17,108 nucleotides of DNA from a virus (taxonomy: Duplodnaviria > Heunggongvirae > Uroviricota > Caudoviricetes): the IMG/VR virus record IMGVR_UViG_2869976549_000007; one strand, 5' to 3'. The notes below the pieces were generated by a model. The model made no database searches. It saw only the letters and a program-made list of their open reading frames with translations, and was not told where the DNA came from. Positions 3,832 to 17,069 of the stretch are shown here, in pieces. Position 1 is the stretch's first letter; each line of letters begins with the position of its first letter. The translations under genes were made by a program, and so were the position numbers.

Positions 3832-3923
3832 ATCCACTGGAGCTGCGACGGGGGGCTGTTTCGCAGTTTACAGAACTGGAAGCCGAGGCCGTCCGCATTA
3901 ACGAGGAGATGAAGCATGGCTGA
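3759..3923 (+). other. Programmed -1 frameshift site (T_TTT_TTT, 3759..3765) and -1 frame extension of the tail assembly chaperone
   Basis: The heptamer lies in the zero frame (cgT TTT TTT acc). The -1 frame is open for 52 codons (YPVGDGKHLRKRLYNVAWFWKLNPLELRRGAVSQFTELEAEAVRINEEMKHG) and stops at 3921..3923, just past the tape-measure ATG at 3916. Confidence 0.5.
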
Positions 3924-5865
3924 CAGTTTTCAGCTGAAGGCGATCATCACTGCCGTGGATAAGGTATCGGCACCGCTGAAGGGAATGCAGCGCCAGCTGA
4001 AAGGTTTTAAAAAGGAGTTTGCCAGCCTGTTACTGGGCGCAGCGGGTGCCGGAACCGCAGTACTGGGGGCGCTGGCGCTCCCGGTCAAATCTGCCATTGC
4101 CCTTGAATCAAAAATGGCGGATGTCCGGAAAGTGGTGGATGGTCTGGATACGCCGGAAGCGTTTAAGGCAATGACGGAGCAGGTGCGCGACCTGTCAACA
4201 GAACTGCCCATGTCGGCGGAAGGTATCGCCGAAATTGTGGCGGCGGGTGGTCAGGCTGGTATCGCCCGTGACGAGCTGATGCAGTTTACTGACGATGCCG
4301 TGAAGATGGGCGTGGCCTTTGACACCACGGCAGAAGAATCCGGTCAGATGATGGCGCAGTGGCGCACTGCCTTTAAACTGACACAGGGAGAGGTGGCAGG
4401 GCTTGCGGATAAGATTAACTATCTTGGTAATACCGGTCCTGCAAGTGCGAAAAAGATTTCTGATGTTGTGACCCGTATTGGCCCTTTAGGCAGTGTTGCG
4501 GGTGTGGCCTCCGGAGAGATTGCCGCAATGGGGGCAACCATTGCCGGAATGGGGGTGGAGTCAGAAATTGCTGCGACGGGGATAAAGAATTTTATGTTGT
4601 CGCTGACAGCGAGGGATTCTGCCACCAAATCGCAGAAAAAAGTGCTCCGCTCGTTGCGCATTAGCCCGAAAAAACTGGCGGCGGATATGCAGAAAGACGC
4701 CCGCGGGGCCATGCTGCACGTACTGGATTCTCTGGCAAAAGTGCCGAAAGAAAAACAGGCTGCTGTGCTGAAAGCGCTGTTCGGGAAGGAATCCCTGGGG
4801 GCCATTGCGCCGCTGCTCACGAATCTGGATTTGTTGCGAACCAACTTTAATCGTGTGGCGGATGCGCAGCAGTATGGCGGCTCAATGCAGAAAGAATATG
4901 CCGCCCGTGCCGCGACGACAGAAAATCAGTTGTTGCTGCTGCAGAACCAGATCAATGCGATTTCTTCCACGCTGGGGGAAACCTTCCTGCCTTCACTCAA
5001 TGAAGGCATAAAAGAGATGAAGCCTTTTCTGGAAGAAGTGCGCACGTTTGTCAGAGAAAATCCTGAGGTCGTAAAAACCATCGCGAAAACTGGTGCGGCA
5101 TTACTGACGATGGGCGTGGCGATTGGCACATTGACACGCATAACAAAAATCATGGGTAGCGTGATGAATATGACGCCGGCAAAGGGATTAATTGCGCTTC
5201 TCGTCGGTGGTGCATATCTCATAATTGATAACTGGGAAACGGTCGGTCCGGTTGTGAAAAAAGTCTGGCAGGAGGTTGATCAGGTTGTCAGAGCAATGGG
5301 GGGATGGGAACAGGCAGTAAAAACAATAGCAACGGTTTCTGCCCTGTATATTGGTGTGAAGGCGGTGGCAAGTATTCGTGCGGCAACAGTCGCCCAGAAT
5401 CAATGGACAACGGCGGCAGGAAAAACAGGGCTGAAATTAAAGGGCCTCGGAAAGATCAGTCTGATTGGTGGATTGCTTGAACTGGGCATGATGGCGCAGG
5501 AGTTTGAAAAAGCACATCCCTGGCTTGTTAAAAATTTTGTGGCTGATGCACTGAACAGTGGATTTGGTCTGAATGATAAGTTCGACGAGTGGGGCAAACA
5601 GTTCCATGATTTTGTCTATGACATGACCGGATGGCAGATGCCACGTGGTGATGGGTATTTATCTCCCGATAAACGCTACACCCCGAATGTATCACTGGAA
5701 AGGAATCAGCTGTTAAGCCTTGCATCTTCACCGGCAACCCGCAGCGAACTTAAGGTGACGTTTGACAACGCGCCGCCTGGAATGCGCGTTATCGATTTGC
5801 CGAAAACAGGCGATCCCTTTATGAAAATCACCCATGATGTTGGGTATTCTCCATTTAAAAGGTGA
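3916..5865 (+). CDS. Tail tape measure protein (Mu gp42-like)
   Basis: 649 aa, directly downstream of the chaperone frameshift window. Ala/Gly-rich N-terminus and an internal hydrophobic segment (…GAALLTMGVAIGTL…GLIALLVGGAYLII…) are typical of tape-measure proteins. Confidence 0.8.
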   Translation: MADSFQLKAIITAVDKVSAPLKGMQRQLKGFKKEFASLLLGAAGAGTAVLGALALPVKSAIALESKMADVRKVVDGLDTPEAFKAMTEQVRDLSTELPMSAEGIAEIVAAGGQAGIARDELMQFTDDAVKMGVAFDTTAEESGQMMAQWRTAFKLTQGEVAGLADKINYLGNTGPASAKKISDVVTRIGPLGSVAGVASGEIAAMGATIAGMGVESEIAATGIKNFMLSLTARDSATKSQKKVLRSLRISPKKLAADMQKDARGAMLHVLDSLAKVPKEKQAAVLKALFGKESLGAIAPLLTNLDLLRTNFNRVADAQQYGGSMQKEYAARAATTENQLLLLQNQINAISSTLGETFLPSLNEGIKEMKPFLEEVRTFVRENPEVVKTIAKTGAALLTMGVAIGTLTRITKIMGSVMNMTPAKGLIALLVGGAYLIIDNWETVGPVVKKVWQEVDQVVRAMGGWEQAVKTIATVSALYIGVKAVASIRAATVAQNQWTTAAGKTGLKLKGLGKISLIGGLLELGMMAQEFEKAHPWLVKNFVADALNSGFGLNDKFDEWGKQFHDFVYDMTGWQMPRGDGYLSPDKRYTPNVSLERNQLLSLASSPATRSELKVTFDNAPPGMRVIDLPKTGDPFMKITHDVGYSPFKR

Positions 5866-5999
5866 GTTCTTTTTTTGTGGTGAAAGATGAGGCAAAATTA
5901 TCGCGTAACATGCTAACAATGGAGTTTGTTTTGTGATAAAGCCATTTTTAATGACGGTTGCAATATTAACCTCTTGCTGTGCTCAGGCGAAAATACTAA

Positions 6000-7195
<1,196 letters not shown>

Positions 7196-7209
7196 ATAGT
7201 GGAGACAGT

Positions 7210-10214: not shown

Positions 10215-10625
10215 ATGATGATTAATGTTAACGGGCGACCCGTGTCGACCGGGGCTTCGATCGACCTTCTGACGCGTGCTGTGATTATTTCGCTTTTTAC
10301 ATGGCGGCGTGCCGGGCGTGATGATGCACCACGGATATTTGGATGGTGGGGGGATACCTGGCCTGCGGTTCAGAATGATCGCACGGGGTCGCGTTTGTAT
10401 CTGTTGCGACGCAGCAAGCTGACAAATAAAACCCCGCAGCTTGCCAGAGATTATGTCCGTGAGGCGCTGGCGTGGATGGTGGAGGATGGTGTTGCTTCCC
10501 GTCTTGATATTAACGCTGTCCGGACCGGGACAGACTCGCTGGCACTTGCCATTACCATTTACCAGCGTGACGGCAATATTCACAACATTATTTTTGATGA
10601 TATCTGGAGTGAACTGAATGGCTGA
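10215..10625 (+). CDS. Baseplate protein, Mu gp46-like
   Basis: 136-aa ORF between the spike and the baseplate J-like gene; overlaps the downstream start. Confidence 0.6.
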   Translation: MMINVNGRPVSTGASIDLLTRAVIISLFTWRRAGRDDAPRIFGWWGDTWPAVQNDRTGSRLYLLRRSKLTNKTPQLARDYVREALAWMVEDGVASRLDINAVRTGTDSLALAITIYQRDGNIHNIIFDDIWSELNG

Positions 10626-11226
10626 CAGTCAGTTTTATCGCCCCGGCCTCCCGCAACTTATTTCTATGATCCGGAGCGATTTATTAACCCGCTTTGAGCA
10701 GGATACGCTGCTTCGTCGTATGGATGCGGAAGTGTATGCCCGTGTACAGGCTGCAGCCGTACACACGTTGTACGGGTATATCGATTATCTTGCCAGAAAT
10801 CTGTTACCGGACGTGTGTGATGAAGACTGGCTGTACCGGCACGCCAGAATCAAACGCTGCCCGCGAAAAGAAGCGGTGGCAGCCCGGGGATTTGTGCGCT
10901 GGGATGGCGTAGAGGGGACGCCGGTATTGCCAGCGGGAACGCAGATCCAGCGTGATAATCAGGTGACCTTTACCACGACGGCGACGGTGACCGCAGCCGA
11001 TGGTCTTCTCCGGGTGCCTGTTGTGGCAGACGAACCGGGATCGGCGGGGAATACGGATGATGGTATTGCCATGCAACTGGGAACACCCGTCAGTGGTCTG
11101 CCGTCCACAGGGTACGCTGACACCATTACAGACGGTGAAGATATTGAAAATCTGGAAATATGGCGTGCCCGCGTTATGGAACGTTATTACTACATTCCAC
11201 AGGGGGGCGCAGGTAATGACTCCAAC

Positions 11227-11730
11227 TTATTGATAGTGTTTTATGTTCAGATAATGCCCGATGACTTTGTCATGCAGCTCCACCGATTTTGAGAACGACA
11301 GCGACTTCCGTCCCAGCCGTGCCAGGTGCTGCCTCAGATTCAGGTTATGCCGCTCAATTCGCTGCGTATATCGCTTGCTGATTACGTGCAGCTTTCCCTT
11401 CAGGCGGGATTCATACAGCGGCCAGCCATCCGTCATCCATATCACCACGTCAAAGGGTGACAGCAGGCTCATAAGACGCCCCAGCGTCGCCATAGTGCGT
11501 TCACCGAATACGTGCGCAACAACCGTCTTCCGGAGACTGTCATACGCGTAAAACAGCCAGCGCTGGCGCGATTTAGCCCCGACATAGCCCCACTGTTCGT
11601 CCATTTCCGCGCAGACGATGACGTCACTGCCCGGCTGTATGCGCGAGGTTACCGACTGCGGCCTGAGTTTTTTAAGTGACGTAAAATCGTGTTGAGGCCA
11701 ACGCCCATAATGCGTGCAGTTGCCCGGCAT
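11227..11730 (-). CDS. insB: IS1 InsB (expressed as InsAB' by frameshift)
   Basis: 167-aa minus-strand ORF overlapping insA. The A6C slippery motif (minus-strand TTAAAAAAC) lies near 11671..11681. Confidence 0.9.
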
Positions 11731-11924
11731 CCAACGCCATTCATGGCCATATCAATGATTTTCTGGTGCGTACCGGGTTGAGAAGCGGTGTAAGTGAACT
11801 GCAGTTGCCATGTTTTACGGCAGTGAGAGCAGAGATAGCGCTGATGTCCGGCAGTGCTTTTGCCGTTACGCACCACCCCGTCAGTAGCTGAACAGGAGGG
11901 ACAGCTGATAGAAACAGAAGCCAC
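11649..11924 (-). CDS. insA: IS1 InsA
   Basis: 91 aa, [43 protein letters not shown]…, matching IS1 InsA. Confidence 0.95.
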
Positions 11925-12476
11925 TGGAGCACCTCAAAAACACCATTATACACTAAATCAGTAAGTTGGCAGCATCACCGGGGGCGCAGACCCTGATTAT
12001 GTTATCTGGGCGAAAGAAGTTCAGGGTATTAACCGTGCATGGACTTTCAGACACTGGAAAGGCACTGGAACGGTTGGCGTGATGGTGGCGACAAACGATC
12101 CGGAACGCCCGGCCCCGGATGAAAGCGTGATTAACGCAGTCAGGGACCACATCCTTCCTCTGGCACCTGTTGCCGGAAGCGGATTGTATGTATTCGGTGC
12201 CACAGAAAAAGTCATCCCGATGACGATTGCATTATCGAAAGACACACCGCAGATCAGGACTGCAATAAAAGCAGAGCTGAATGCACTGATGTTACGGGAT
12301 GGTGTGCCAGAGGGGCGTATGTATCTGTCCAGAATCAGTGAGGCCATCAGTTTGTCTGCTGGTGAAGTGGCCCACCGGTTAATCGTCCCTTCATCGGATA
12401 TTGACCTGGGGGAGACCGAGCTTCCGGTGCTCGGCGAGATCACCTGGCAGGCTTATGACCCGGCAAGGAGTAAATA

Positions 12477-13067
12477 ATGGATTCGTTACAGGATGATTAT
12501 ACAAAGCTGCTGTACGGACTGATGCCGCCGGGGCCTGCATGGTCAGATACCGACGGTGTACTTGACGGTCTGGCACCATCGCTTGTGCGTGTTCACCAGC
12601 GGGCTGATGAACTGGTGATTGAAATCGATCCCGGTCAGTCCACAGAGCTGATTGAACGTTATGAAGAATTGTATGGTTTACCTGATTCCTGTTCCCCTGT
12701 CGGAACCCAGACATTACGCCAGCGTCAGCAACGTCTTGAAGCAAAAGCCAATGTGGCTGGTGGCATAAATGAGCAGTTCTTCCTGGATCAGCTTGAGGCG
12801 CTGGGATATACCGGCGTAACGATCGAACAGTTCCAGCACTTGGATGCAAGCCCCGATCCGGAATGGGGAGATCGCTGGCGTTATTTCTGGCGTGTGACGT
12901 TGCCGATGGATGCCGGTGCTCAGTGGCAGACATGCACGGACGCCTGCAACACACCGATCCGGACGTGGGGGGATACGGTTGCGGAGTGCGTGATTAATAA
13001 ATTATGTCCGTCACACACCGTCGTTTTATTTTCCTATCCAGATGAGGATGAAGATGCACAGGATTGA
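12477..13067 (+). CDS. Tail/baseplate protein, Mu gp48-like (DUF2313/YmfQ-like)
   Basis: 196 aa; its start overlaps the baseplate J stop (TAATGG). Position between baseplate J and the tail fibre fits Mu gene order. Confidence 0.65.
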   Translation: MDSLQDDYTKLLYGLMPPGPAWSDTDGVLDGLAPSLVRVHQRADELVIEIDPGQSTELIERYEELYGLPDSCSPVGTQTLRQRQQRLEAKANVAGGINEQFFLDQLEALGYTGVTIEQFQHLDASPDPEWGDRWRYFWRVTLPMDAGAQWQTCTDACNTPIRTWGDTVAECVINKLCPSHTVVLFSYPDEDEDAQD

Positions 13068-14094
13068 TACGCTGACTGCGGTAAAAGATAAGTTTGGTCC
13101 GGGTAAGAACGGATTTACTGACGGAAATCTTCGCACAGGACGTCTTGCTACCTGGCTGAACAGTGCCATGTGGAATGCCATTCAGGAGGAAATCTGTGGT
13201 GTCATTGAGAAGGCCGGGATAGAACTGAATAAAGAAGAACACGACCAGCTATATAAGGCTATATTATTGCTGGTGGGCGGTGCAATTAACGAAGAGGCAT
13301 TGCTGATAAAAAATAACCTTTCGGATGTGGAAGACAGGGATGAGGCTGTTGAAAACCTCGGATTAAAACCCACGGTGGATAAGGCAAAAAATGCCGTTCA
13401 GCGTGATGGCGACACCATGACCGGAGAGCTGAAAATCCGTGGTGTTAATGCGCTGAGGATTTTCAACGAAGCTTTTGGCCTGATTTTTCGTCGTTCGGAA
13501 GAGTGCCTGCACCTTATTCCCACCAGTGAAGGTCAGGGGGAAAATGGCGATATTGGTCCCCTGCGCCCGTTCACCATTAATCTGCGGACGGGTGAAATAT
13601 CCATGTCGCATAAAGTGTCTGTTGGCGGTGGTTCGCAGGTCAATGGTGCGCTGGGTATCGGCGTTCAGAACGCCCTGGGGGGGAATTCAATTGTTCTTGG
13701 TGATAATGACACCGGATTCAAACAGAATGGTGATGGCCTGCTGGATGTTTATGCCAATAGCGTGCATGTGTTGCGTTTTCAGAGTGGCAGTATCCAGAGT
13801 AATAAAGCTGTAAACGTTACAGGACGGGTAACACCGTCAGACTACGGAAACTTTGATGCCCGTTACCAGCAGCGAAATGGTGGCGTGCAGGATGTGCGGT
13901 ATGGTTATGAAATGTATTACACCCCCGGCAGTAACACCGTTTCGTGGACATTTCGCTCACCTTCGGGACACGGGCTGTCAGGGATATCGATATCGGATAC
14001 CGGCCGTAACTCAGCGGATAACGTCAACGGCGTGTATTACCGACCGCTGCAAAAACTGATTAATGGCACCTGGTATAACGTAGCGAGTATTTAA
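13042..14094 (+). CDS. Tail fibre protein (Mu S-like N-terminus)
   Basis: The N-terminal motif …HRIDTLTAVKDKFGPGKNGFTDGN…WLNSAMWNAIQEEICGVIEKAGIEL… resembles conserved tail-fibre N-termini. Start is ambiguous (in-frame ATGs at 13042, 13048, 13054). Followed by a tfa-like gene. Confidence 0.7.
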   Translation: MRMKMHRIDTLTAVKDKFGPGKNGFTDGNLRTGRLATWLNSAMWNAIQEEICGVIEKAGIELNKEEHDQLYKAILLLVGGAINEEALLIKNNLSDVEDRDEAVENLGLKPTVDKAKNAVQRDGDTMTGELKIRGVNALRIFNEAFGLIFRRSEECLHLIPTSEGQGENGDIGPLRPFTINLRTGEISMSHKVSVGGGSQVNGALGIGVQNALGGNSIVLGDNDTGFKQNGDGLLDVYANSVHVLRFQSGSIQSNKAVNVTGRVTPSDYGNFDARYQQRNGGVQDVRYGYEMYYTPGSNTVSWTFRSPSGHGLSGISISDTGRNSADNVNGVYYRPLQKLINGTWYNVASI

Positions 14095-14096
14095 CA

Positions 14097-14642
14097 ATGT
14101 TGCATTTAAAAAATATTACGGCAGGTAATCCGAAAACCGCGGAATAATATCAGCTGACAAAACAGTATGATGTCACCTGGCTTTTTTCGGAAGACGGCAA
14201 AAACTGGTATGAAGAACAGAAGAACTTTGCCAGTGACACCATAAAAATGGTTTACACCGGAGACGGGCGCGTGGTGTGGGTCGGTAAGGATGTGACAGGC
14301 ATTGAACCCCGTAACGCCAGTGTTATTGAAGTTCCTGATATTACCGCCAACCGCCGCATTACCGCGCCGGGTTACTGGTTTTACCGCAATGATGAATTTG
14401 TCTTTGACTACAGACTCAAAGCGGAAGATGAGCGTGATGCCCTTCTGGCTCAGGTCAGTGCCCGGACAGGGGAATGGGAAGAAGACCTGCTGCTGGGGCT
14501 AATCAGCGACGAAGACCGGGAAAAACTGAAAGCGTACCGTATTTACGCGAAATCGCTGCAGGCGATGGATTTCAGCACCATCACTGATAAATCCTCATAT
14601 AACGCCATTGAATGGTCCGTCTCTCCGGAAGGTTCTTCCTGA
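14097..14642 (+). pseudogene. Tail fibre assembly protein (Tfa/Mu U-like) with in-frame ochre codon at 14145..14147
   Basis: The ATG at 14097 gives MLHLKNITAGNPKTAE, then TAA, then in the same frame YQLTKQYDVTWLFSEDGKNWYEEQKNF… continuing to 14642. The Tfa-like N-terminus (MxHLKNITAGNPKT…) therefore lies upstream of the stop. First in-frame ATG after the stop is 14247. Confidence 0.6.
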
Positions 14643-14665: not shown

Positions 14666-15934
14666 ATGTCTGTAGTGATATCAGGTGCGCTGACTGATGG
14701 CGCAGGCATCCCCATGTCCGGATGCCAGATTATTCTGAAATCCCGTGTAAACATCTCAGAAGTGGTGATGCGTACCAGGGCTGATGTAGTGACCGGAAAT
14801 AACGGTGAATATTCGTTTGAGGCACAGGTCGGAAAATATTGCGTGTATCTGAAACGGGACTGGCGCGACGAGTACTGTGTTGGCGACATTGCTGTATACG
14901 ACGACTCAAAGCCCGGCACGCTGAATGACTTTCTGATTGCTCCTGATGAGGGCGACCTGAAACCGGATGTCGTCAAACGCTTTGAGGAAATGGTGGCGCA
15001 GGCGCAGCAGAGCGCCGGGGCCGCAGCCGGAAACGCACAGCAGACGGCGCAGGATGTGGCGGCAGCCGCAGGTTATGCCCGCGCAGCAGAGCAGGCCAAA
15101 AATGACATTGATGCTGCGCTGACCGGCACTCTGAAAACGGCTAACCATCTGTCTGAAATCGCAGCAGCAGGCGAAAAGGCACAACAGAAGTCCCGGGATA
15201 ATCTGGGGCTGAAAAGTGCGGCCACGATGGAAGCACAGAGCGACATTTACGACCGGACAAAAGGCCGTCTGGCGATACCCGGCGCATTCGGCTTTGGGTG
15301 TGCTTTTCTGCCTGAAGATGTTATCCGTTTTGACACTAAGAGTGATTTCCTGGCCTGGGTAAGGAATGCGCTGCCAGGTGAATATTCCGTTGCTGGCCCC
15401 TACGACATCATCATACCCGACACACGGTTTGAAGGGGTGCTCAGCATCCGGTGGACTGATGCACGCCCTGAGACAACAGAACCGAGGTACAGAGCCAAAT
15501 CCCTTACTTTTTACGGCATTAACGGCCCCATTTATCACACCCGCTACTGCTACTGGCCCATATCCAGACTGACTGGCTGGGTGAAAATAAATATAACCAC
15601 AGAAGATATTATTTACAGAATCGTGGCGAGCTCTGTCTGCAACAGATGGGGAGACCCTGACATTGGCGGGCTGATTATTGCTGCGTACCAGGGAGAAGCT
15701 GACGGTGATAAAGTCATCAGACTTGTCAGGGGGCAGTCATACAGAGGCTCACGACTGGGACCGGTGGGGATTTCAGTGCCCAGTACTCCCACCGGAACGT
15801 ATATAGCATCCCCACAATTTTTCATTACGGGATGTTCAGAGCATTCATTACCGGGGTCATATAGCGCCCTGTCCGGGGTGCCGGATGCTCATGTCTCTGG
15901 CGCAATGCCCGGGCTTTTTATTCGCACATCGTGA
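14666..15934 (+). CDS. Second tail fibre-like protein: lambda Stf-type N-terminal domain, Ala/Gln-rich linker, unrecognised C-terminal domain
   Basis: The N-terminus MSVVISGALTDGAGIPMSGCQIILKSR…YDDSKPGTLNDFL closely parallels the lambda Stf N-terminus (…TDGAGKPVQNCTIQLKARR…VYEDSQPGTLNDFL). An Ala/Gln-rich segment follows. The C-terminal ~220 aa has several Cys and no motif I recognise. Confidence 0.6.
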   Translation: MSVVISGALTDGAGIPMSGCQIILKSRVNISEVVMRTRADVVTGNNGEYSFEAQVGKYCVYLKRDWRDEYCVGDIAVYDDSKPGTLNDFLIAPDEGDLKPDVVKRFEEMVAQAQQSAGAAAGNAQQTAQDVAAAAGYARAAEQAKNDIDAALTGTLKTANHLSEIAAAGEKAQQKSRDNLGLKSAATMEAQSDIYDRTKGRLAIPGAFGFGCAFLPEDVIRFDTKSDFLAWVRNALPGEYSVAGPYDIIIPDTRFEGVLSIRWTDARPETTEPRYRAKSLTFYGINGPIYHTRYCYWPISRLTGWVKINITTEDIIYRIVASSVCNRWGDPDIGGLIIAAYQGEADGDKVIRLVRGQSYRGSRLGPVGISVPSTPTGTYIASPQFFITGCSEHSLPGSYSALSGVPDAHVSGAMPGLFIRTS

Positions 15935-15944
15935 GGAATGCACC

Positions 15945-16508
15945 GTGGAAATTAAAAAAATCATTAATCCCCGTTATACCGAAAGTGGCGCAGTAGACTG
16001 TGACGTTTTTTTTGACGACAGGGACCAGGCAGTCCCCTACACAGCCACCGCTGATGATGTCGCACCGACGGGTCAGCGAATCTGGCAGGAACTGCAAAGT
16101 GGCAAATGGGGTGAGATAGCCCCATTCACTGTGACACCAGAAATGCTGGAAGCGGCCAGAGAGGCCAGACGTCAGGAAATTGAAGCATGGCGCACAGAAC
16201 AGGAGGCGAAGCCGTTCACGTTTGAATGGAATGGTCGTATCTGGAATGCTGGCCCCGACTCACTGGGCCGCCTGTCCCCGGTAGTCATGCTGGCAAAATC
16301 TGTCACAGCACAAACGCATATGGCGTGGGGTGATGCCGATAATCAGCAGGTGAAACTGTCGATGCCGGAACTGGAAGAACTGGCGGCAGCAATGGTGCAG
16401 GCGCAGGTCGATCGCAACGATGAGATTTATCGCCGTCAGCGTGAAATGAAAGAGGAGCTGAGTGGTCTGGAGGATTTGGGAACAATTAGAGCGTTTGATG
16501 TTACGTAA
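15945..16508 (+). CDS. Putative tail fibre chaperone / assembly protein (DUF4376-like)
   Basis: A GTG start at 15945 with GAGGAA 7 nt upstream, just after the upstream TGA (15932..15934). The ORF-track ATG at 15885 would overlap the upstream gene. The 187-aa product has a C-terminal pattern (…FEWNGRIWNAGPDSLGRL…WGDADNQQVKLSMPELEELAAAMV…) resembling fibre-associated chaperones. Confidence 0.45.
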   Translation: MEIKKIINPRYTESGAVDCDVFFDDRDQAVPYTATADDVAPTGQRIWQELQSGKWGEIAPFTVTPEMLEAAREARRQEIEAWRTEQEAKPFTFEWNGRIWNAGPDSLGRLSPVVMLAKSVTAQTHMAWGDADNQQVKLSMPELEELAAAMVQAQVDRNDEIYRRQREMKEELSGLEDLGTIRAFDVT

Positions 16509-16554
16509 TTGGTAAGCTGCATCGTGTTAAATTGTTACCCTTATTTACAACTAG

Positions 16555-16588
16555 AAAAGCCTCTGACTTCATAATCAGAGGCTTTTTT
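16555..16588 (+). terminator. Rho-independent terminator (12-bp perfect stem, 8-nt loop, T6 tail)
   Basis: AAAAGCCTCTGA (16555..16566) pairs with TCAGAGGCTTTT (16575..16586), followed by TT. The A-run on the other side could make it bidirectional. Confidence 0.65.
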
Positions 16589-16706
16589 GAAATGCACGTG
16601 CATTTTGCGTGTATATTTTTGTCTTTTTCTGGTCCGCTTACTGTCTGGTCAGTGTCCGTAAGTGACTGTTTTTATAGTCTCTGTCCGGTTGCAGTCCTGT
16701 CAAAAG

Positions 16707-17069
16707 TGGTGGAGCTGGCGGGAGTTGAACCCGCGTCCGAAATTCCTACATCCTCGGTACTACATGCTTAGTCAGTCTTTACATTCGCTTGCCAGCTGCG
16801 GACGGACACGCCACTAACAAACTAGCCTGATTAAGTTTTAACGCTTCAACCCCAGGCAGGGCTTCCACGCGATCTCTTTTGGGTTTGACCTCTCTTGATC
16901 CCCGTCCTAAGAGCGGAGGCTAGGGAGAGAGGGCTCTAAGCAGGTTATTAAGCTGCTAAAGCGTAGTTTTCGTCGTTTGCGACTATTTTTTGCGGCTTTT
17001 TACGAGGCCAACCGCCCCTCGGCATGCACCTTGGGTTTCGCAAATCCCGTCGAATCCAGAATCAGCCCC
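16707..17069 (-). ncRNA. ssrA: tmRNA (transfer-messenger RNA)
   Basis: The reverse complement reads GGGGCTGATTCTGGATTCGACGGGATTTGCGAAACCCAAGGTGCATGCCGAGGGG…GCAAACGACGAAAACTACGCTTTAGCAGCTTAATAA…GGGTTCAACTCCCGCCAGCTCCACCA. This is an enterobacterial ssrA with the ANDENYALAA tag-coding region and 3' CCA. Confidence 0.95.

Follow-up and report, generated by a model that had tools for sequence, protein, structure and literature searches.

The window analysed here, a stretch of 17,108 nucleotides (nt) from the IMG/VR virus record IMGVR_UViG_2869976549_000007, is the tail half of a prophage ending next to ssrA, and our subject is the pair of plus-strand genes at positions 14666-16508. Very probably a temperate myophage of the phiP27 type lies here next to ssrA in Shigella sonnei, and these genes are its second tail-fibre cassette, made up of a fibre and a DUF4376 chaperone, diversified by swaps of the tip alone, and now stranded in a broken prophage. 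To judge from its sequence the pair is the homologue of phiP27 L56/L57, a module that has already been annotated and is very common.

The fibre gene (14666..15934, +) encodes 422 amino acids (aa), as an earlier note on this DNA had read from its open reading frame (ORF). Besides the ORF itself, the assignment rests on a match to PHROG 2636 ('tail fiber protein', residues 133-421, E 5e-204), on the position of the gene, which is that of phiP27 L56, and on WP_052983223.1, a Shigella sonnei tail fibre protein at NCBI that is identical to ours. The N-terminal anchor (residues 1-131; 14666..15058, +) is, as that note had recognised, of the lambda Stf type. Specifically, it is an immunoglobulin-like (Ig-like) 'collar' domain matched by the Pfam family PF08400, phage_tail_N, with E 6.1e-63 and 211.2 bits (cut-off 26.6) over profile positions 1-131 of 134, and with phmmer residues 1-92 aligned to residues 1-92 of the N-terminal chain of lambda Stf (PDB 9e7m chain Ta, Stf 1-94; E 1.2e-16). 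The collar spike gp40 of Vibrio phage XM1 (PDB 7kjk) aligned over residues 1-198, with E 7.6e-7.

Behind the anchor comes the Ala/Gln-rich linker that had also been noticed before, a shaft of residues ~106-190 (14981..15235, +), presumably a trimeric coiled coil, in which Ala and Gln make up 41% of residues versus 8% in the rest of the protein. The length of this shaft differs among relatives, whose whole fibres measure from 421 to 1061 aa. It leads into a conserved neck block (..NLGLKSAAT..QSDIYDRT.GRLAIPGAFGFG; 15131..15291, +) and then into the distal tip (residues ~211-422; 15298..15931, +), for which two beta-rich subdomains are predicted and which we presume to be the receptor-binding domain.

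Comparison of the cassette with those of phiP27, C311, Rac-SA53 and pPE4 revealed that the tip is exchanged independently of the N-terminus, since the anchor is 84-85% identical to these relatives at the protein level, the chaperone 71-77%, and the tip 35-36%. In DNA, similarity to the relatives runs through the N-terminal domain, is found again at the neck block, is gone at ~15291-15298 and is back at 15931-15986, where the chaperone gene starts. Replacement has therefore affected the tip alone, with a conserved arm on either side of it, the neck block being the upstream one. The DNA of this block is 75-79% identical to that of phiP27 and of a P2 H-type fibre (L011), while the adjoining tip cannot be aligned. 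Moreover, since other E. coli prophages carry P2 H-type (PF12571) fibres in the same slot, with the neck block, the tip family and the DUF4376 gene unchanged, and since whole fibres span such a range of lengths, the anchor, the shaft length and the tip vary independently of one another, with the chaperone as the constant element.

Compared with the Stx2e phage phiP27, the window shows 94.5% identity across 67% of its length. In phiP27 the order is L53 (gp48-like), the L54 fibre, the L55 assembly protein, the L56 fibre, L57 and attR, and the same five-gene order was found in E. coli FDAARGOS_944, E. coli C311 (also at ssrA), Rac-SA53 and vB_Apl-pPE4. The suggestion that an Stf-type N-terminus on a Mu-type baseplate marks a mosaic join had to be abandoned: the arrangement is a fixed one, which phiP27 (L54-L57) shares with many prophages of E. 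coli and Shigella, and thus not a local mosaic event.

While the second cassette itself is intact, the prophage that carries it is defective. An insertion sequence (IS), IS1 (11212..11979 with approximate ends, -; DDE_Tnp_IS1 E 6e-78 and IS match), cuts the gp47-like baseplate J gene into two ORFs, 10618-11292 and 12079-12477, so the tail module is broken and a functional tail is not expected to assemble from this prophage copy. A second insertion, an IS5-family element (5995..7200, +) recognised by its DDE transposase of 326 aa (DDE_Tnp_1, DUF772) and by terminal inverted repeats of 21 nt, follows the tape-measure gene (3916-5865), precedes the DNA-circularisation gene and may have a polar effect on the baseplate genes downstream. 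In addition, the Caudo_TAP fibre assembly (Tfa) gene of the first cassette (14097..14642, +; PF02413 E 7e-21 on the remaining ORF) is inactivated by a TAA at 14145-14147, codon 17, where E. coli FDAARGOS_944, E. coli C311 and phiP27 all have CAA, the remainder being intact and in frame. The earlier note had seen this stop codon and concluded that ours may be the only intact fibre cassette left, which is literally true and at the same time moot, since IS1 breaks the whole tail module.

These lesions bear on the rival that survives best, namely that the cassette is a decaying remnant with no present function here, its intact frames merely reflecting recent inactivation. This view is compatible with the identity of the cassette, contests only that it works in this genome, and to that extent we think it rather likely to be right. 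Apart from the two insertions and the nonsense codon, it is favoured by the many partial copies of the cassette in the databases and by the frameshift in the ipaH gene that sits beside one E. coli copy. Against it, both genes are full length, and their ratios of non-synonymous to synonymous substitution (dN/dS) against an E. coli copy are 0.2-0.3 (fibre 0.34, ~20 changes; chaperone 0.21, ~16 changes), values that would speak only for past constraint on the two genes and may date entirely from before the decay. It is also conceivable that another phiP27-like prophage of the same genome complements this one, because such prophages have been reported from S. sonnei earlier and its genomes carry several of them (PMC5447701).

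The second gene of the cassette encodes a 187-aa protein starting from GTG 15945 (15945..16508, +), and the chaperone-like ORF of that length described in the earlier note stood up well. Seven homologues, phiP27 L57 and six others, begin at this GTG, which has GAGGA 6 nt upstream and follows the fibre stop codon by 10 nt. The longer ORF from an ATG (15885-16508, +; 207 aa) would begin inside the fibre gene and carry 20 more residues, for which the homologues have no counterpart; the exact sequence of the 207-aa product occurs on 502 contigs. In this longer form residues 90-194 match PF14301, DUF4376, a fibre-chaperone family, with E 1.5e-16 and 61.2 bits (cut-off 25), and PHROG 1141 matches the protein at E 3e-88. 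An AlphaFold2 model with a predicted local distance difference test (pLDDT) of 90.5 has three N-terminal strands and a helical body with two beta-hairpins, elements that have also been reported from V22 gp27 and A5 gp9 (PMC10579305). A PDB profile search with the chaperone family returned no match. Importantly, a DUF4376 gene adjoins the fibre gene on its downstream side in all 12 of the 12 loci with a fibre of this tip family that we examined.

Work on related proteins guides the functional assignment. The V22 chaperone gp27 is essential for active fibres (PMC7289586) and the H-fibre of Campylobacter CJIE1 requires its DUF4376 neighbour (PMC7882524), whereas A5 gp9, which is dispensable, caps the fibre tip as a trimer in the published model (PMC10579305). 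By analogy with these cases we infer that the 187-aa protein acts as an intermolecular chaperone of the fibre. A likeness of DUF4376 to the C-terminus of Mu Tfa has been claimed (PMC7882524), and we could not support it: hhalign of DUF4376 against Caudo_TAP, the family of the neighbouring Tfa, gave a probability of 0.3%, that is, no relationship, with profiles that were shallow. As a separate observation, the N-terminal part of phrog_11571 matches residues 1-63 of the Caudo_TAP fragment and its C-terminal part residues 72-206 of the DUF4376 protein, which hints that hybrid Caudo_TAP/DUF4376 chaperones exist in some phages.

It could be argued instead that the DUF4376 protein is a distal fibre subunit or adhesin of the T4 gp38 kind, which stays on the virion rather than acting transiently. 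Its homologues are labelled 'tail fiber protein' in GenBank and PHROG, a transient 'cap' on the fibre tip has been proposed (PMC10579305), Mu Tfa stays bound to its fibre (PMC7882524), and conservation of the protein is strong despite the variation of the tips. These labels are, however, automatic annotation, V22 gp27 has been described as a chaperone needed for the fibre to be active (PMC7289586), and a partner that contacts the receptor should vary, yet the DUF4376 protein is the most conserved of the distal parts. We therefore consider a virion-bound adhesin improbable and keep to a chaperone.

The tip belongs to a family that recurs widely. When the tip alone was used in tblastn it found the fibre C-termini of phiP27 (E 7e-16), Rac-SA53, SerU-LTIIb, pPE4, Av-05 and related Vequintavirinae at 30-35% identity, and in Goslar a match limited to the first half of the tip. 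A profile search gathered 299 clusters at 90% identity, mainly from Escherichia, Shigella, Salmonella and Citrobacter, and an exhaustive HMMER scan of 1.84 billion representatives gathered 94 tip-family clusters at 50% identity. With few exceptions among these 94, the domain occupies the extreme C-terminus of proteins of ~200 to 1300 aa, and nearly all full-length matches stop 1-3 residues from the end of the protein. Three kinds of anchor precede it, the Stf-type (PF08400), the P2 H-type (PF12571) and the rV5-type N-termini of Vequintavirinae. The neck motif, ..LGLKSAA..QSDIYDRT.G.LA.PGAFGFG, is kept in all members, as is the GLFxRxA ending, and both contribute to the 19-20 invariant columns; most of the 16-20 invariant positions in the family alignments are Gly, Pro, Trp, Tyr or Phe. 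The first tip subdomain is by itself repeated within the fibres of Rac-SA53 and Goslar. In Rac-SA53 tail3 (1061 aa; L005 1393-4578) additional internal copies of the neck motif and the first subdomain precede a terminal full tip, and these repeats resemble the 'knob duplication' of Alteromonas phage A5.

The earlier note had called the C-terminal ~220 aa an unrecognised, Cys-containing domain. This holds for curated collections, since residues ~190-422 found no match in Pfam, NCBIfam or PDB sequences (the PDB also with a family profile), and fails for PHROG, whose family 2636 does match. A Pfam scan of residues 132-422 detected no fibre-tip family, and the tip is not of the gp37-like kind. Pfam and NCBIfam likewise gave neither Peptidase_S74 nor an enzyme domain for the C-terminal region, nor did the PDB sequence search, in which the N-terminal domain alone matched and the tip part hit nothing except a Lon protease at chance level (E 1.6). 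An NCBIfam scan of four fibre-region proteins was also without a match. The tip does have four cysteines (212, 295, 325 and 390); three are unconserved across the family, and of the 15 aligned sequences without a gap at C390, 11 keep the cysteine. The AlphaFold2 model of the tip, built on a 26-sequence alignment, has two beta-rich subdomains (mean pLDDT 78.9, predicted TM-score 0.50). Its structure neighbours are weak and confined to phage receptor-binding proteins and fibres, namely the phi812 receptor-binding protein, the R2 pyocin fibre, phage K gp144, T4 gp34 and the Mu fibre, and in BFVD the tip matched tail fibres exclusively. These results support the view that the C-terminal domain is a fibre tip that lacks a solved structure and a curated domain model, and presumably, from its sequence relatives, the receptor-binding domain of a recurrent family of unsolved structure.

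The note had offered a receptor-binding or other effector domain, and it is the first half of this alternative that stands. Nothing we found favours an enzymatic or effector function, and the idea that the domain is an enzyme (depolymerase or esterase), a toxin or an effector for which the fibre serves as a scaffold seems to us scarcely credible: its function is defined by no curated domain model or solved homologue and in other genomes homologous cassettes are directly followed by cargo genes, ipaH and eib among them, but those genes are separate from the fibre, the invariant positions are mostly Gly, Pro and aromatic residues with no conserved constellation of a catalytic type, the cysteines are not conserved, the significant neighbours in structure or sequence are all phage fibres or receptor-binding proteins, and a domain of only ~220 aa is always found at the fibre end and paired with a fibre chaperone.

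Where the fibre sits on the particle may be approached through solved structures. The N-terminal domains of Ur-lambda Stf make up a dodecameric collar where gpV meets gpM, and flexible linkers lead from it to the trimeric shaft (PMC12617516), and in the myophage XM1 six gp40 trimers attach to the neck via the homologous N-terminal domain (PMC10457771). By analogy these structures suggest for an Stf-type N-terminal domain a place in a collar, on the tail or neck, and not at the baseplate. The second fibre of phiP27-type phages would thus more likely belong to the collar or neck than to the baseplate fibre socket, which is presumably served by the first fibre.

Taking these elements together, the fibre would be a homotrimer built from the Ig-like Stf-type anchor, a short Ala/Gln coiled shaft, the neck motif and a two-subdomain tip. 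By analogy with V22 and A5, the helical body of the chaperone would mediate trimer formation, and the N-terminal beta-strands of the chaperone would pair with the tip and enable the tip trimer to fold. Host range would then evolve by replacement of the tip alone, through recombination between the neck block and the chaperone gene. In the window such a cassette would be intact but stranded by the IS1 in baseplate J, the IS5-family element after the tape measure and the nonsense codon in the first Tfa.

Some points weigh against this account. The chaperone is much better conserved than the tips, which is not what a specific tip-chaperone interface would predict; and the tip family comes without experiment or solved structure. 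Searches of the literature on PF08400 and phiP27 tail fibres yielded no study on the receptor or the function of L56-type fibres. Since the chaperone is conserved far more than the tips, it seems to touch only conserved tip residues (GSRL, PGxYxALSG and GLFxRxA), and by sequence comparison a single, near-universal chaperone appears to serve very divergent tips. The most far-reaching version of the account, in which the Stf-N second fibre of phiP27-type phages is a neck or collar fibre like XM1 gp40, carries an unsolved two-subdomain receptor-binding fold, is matured by one near-universal DUF4376 chaperone that handles tips of ~30-40% identity, and sets host range by tip swap alone, is put forward tentatively, as a possibility that we would not bet on as a whole.

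Finally, we turned to the surroundings of the cassette. The plus-strand gene order is sheath, tape measure, DNA-circularisation, Mu gpP, gp45, gp46, baseplate J, gp48/YmfQ, fibre 1, Caudo_TAP, fibre 2 and DUF4376. The first tail-fibre gene (13042..14094, +; 350 aa) is the homologue of phiP27 L54, assigned by PHROG 6859 (E 1.6e-209) and by synteny with phiP27. An 18-nt inverted repeat, 89% complementary (13774-13791 and 15122-15139), joins the first and second fibre genes. We rejected an invertible segment in the style of the Mu G segment: the cassettes are co-directional and no other inverted repeat links them, and because no invertase gene is present the repeat is probably due to chance. The cassette is closed by a terminator-like hairpin with a T-run (16552..16589, +), ~45 nt past the last stop codon of the operon. 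The promoter and terminator scan made no terminator call there, and the hairpin was confirmed by folding (16545-16600, -20.6 kcal/mol, z -5.56).

Beyond the hairpin lies ssrA (16707..17069, -; transfer-messenger RNA), the chromosomal gene at the prophage end, identified by ARAGORN and joined to the prophage as in E. coli C311. The slot of ~200 bp between the DUF4376 gene and ssrA is empty here. In E. coli FDAARGOS_944 (L001 7454-9095) the frameshifted ipaH effector gene is located just downstream of the homologous DUF4376 gene, and in the P-EibD and P-EibE records immunoglobulin-binding eib genes follow 'orf-191', in the slot downstream of the homologous DUF4376 gene.

The gain from these results is one of annotation: a common enterobacterial prophage module is resolved into an anchor, a shaft, a conserved neck, a swappable tip and a generalist DUF4376 chaperone, and a tip family that has neither a Pfam model nor a structure is flagged. 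The exact recombination boundaries could guide the engineering of fibre tips for retargeting phages or tailocins, and for the host genome the prophage at ssrA is shown to be defective. Nothing in the cassette is novel, and the gaps that remain are ordinary ones, without anomalies.

Among known systems the closest is phiP27 L56/L57, which shares the position, the anchor (85%), the neck motif, a homologous tip (36% over 221 aa) and the DUF4376 gene (74%). It differs in that the shaft of the window is 68 aa shorter, the tip is another allele with no DNA similarity over 15298-15931, and the prophage lies at ssrA and is disrupted by IS elements. Lambda Stf/Tfa is homologous over the N-terminal ~92 residues; the fibre of the window, by contrast, has no gp37-like tip or His-box, its chaperone is DUF4376 instead of Caudo_TAP, and its tail is contractile. 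XM1 gp40 shares the N-terminal domain and the coil that follows, again in a myophage, although it has 839 aa and an unrelated distal part, and its attachment to the neck is a feature of XM1 that offers only an analogy for phiP27-type phages. In the Alteromonas phages V22 (gp26/gp27) and A5 (gp8/gp9) a short knob-tipped fibre is likewise followed by a protein of ~190-240 aa with a C-terminal DUF4376, and the chaperones have N-terminal strands and a helical body with beta-hairpins in common, a likeness that rests on shared Pfam membership only; knob duplication is seen in A5 there and in Rac-SA53 among the relatives here, whereas the tips may be unrelated folds. The P2 H-type second fibres of E. 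coli prophages (PF12571, 408-416 aa), for their part, share the slot, the neck block, the tip family (30-44%) and the DUF4376 chaperone, and differ in carrying an anchor of the P2 H/tail-collar type in place of the Stf type.

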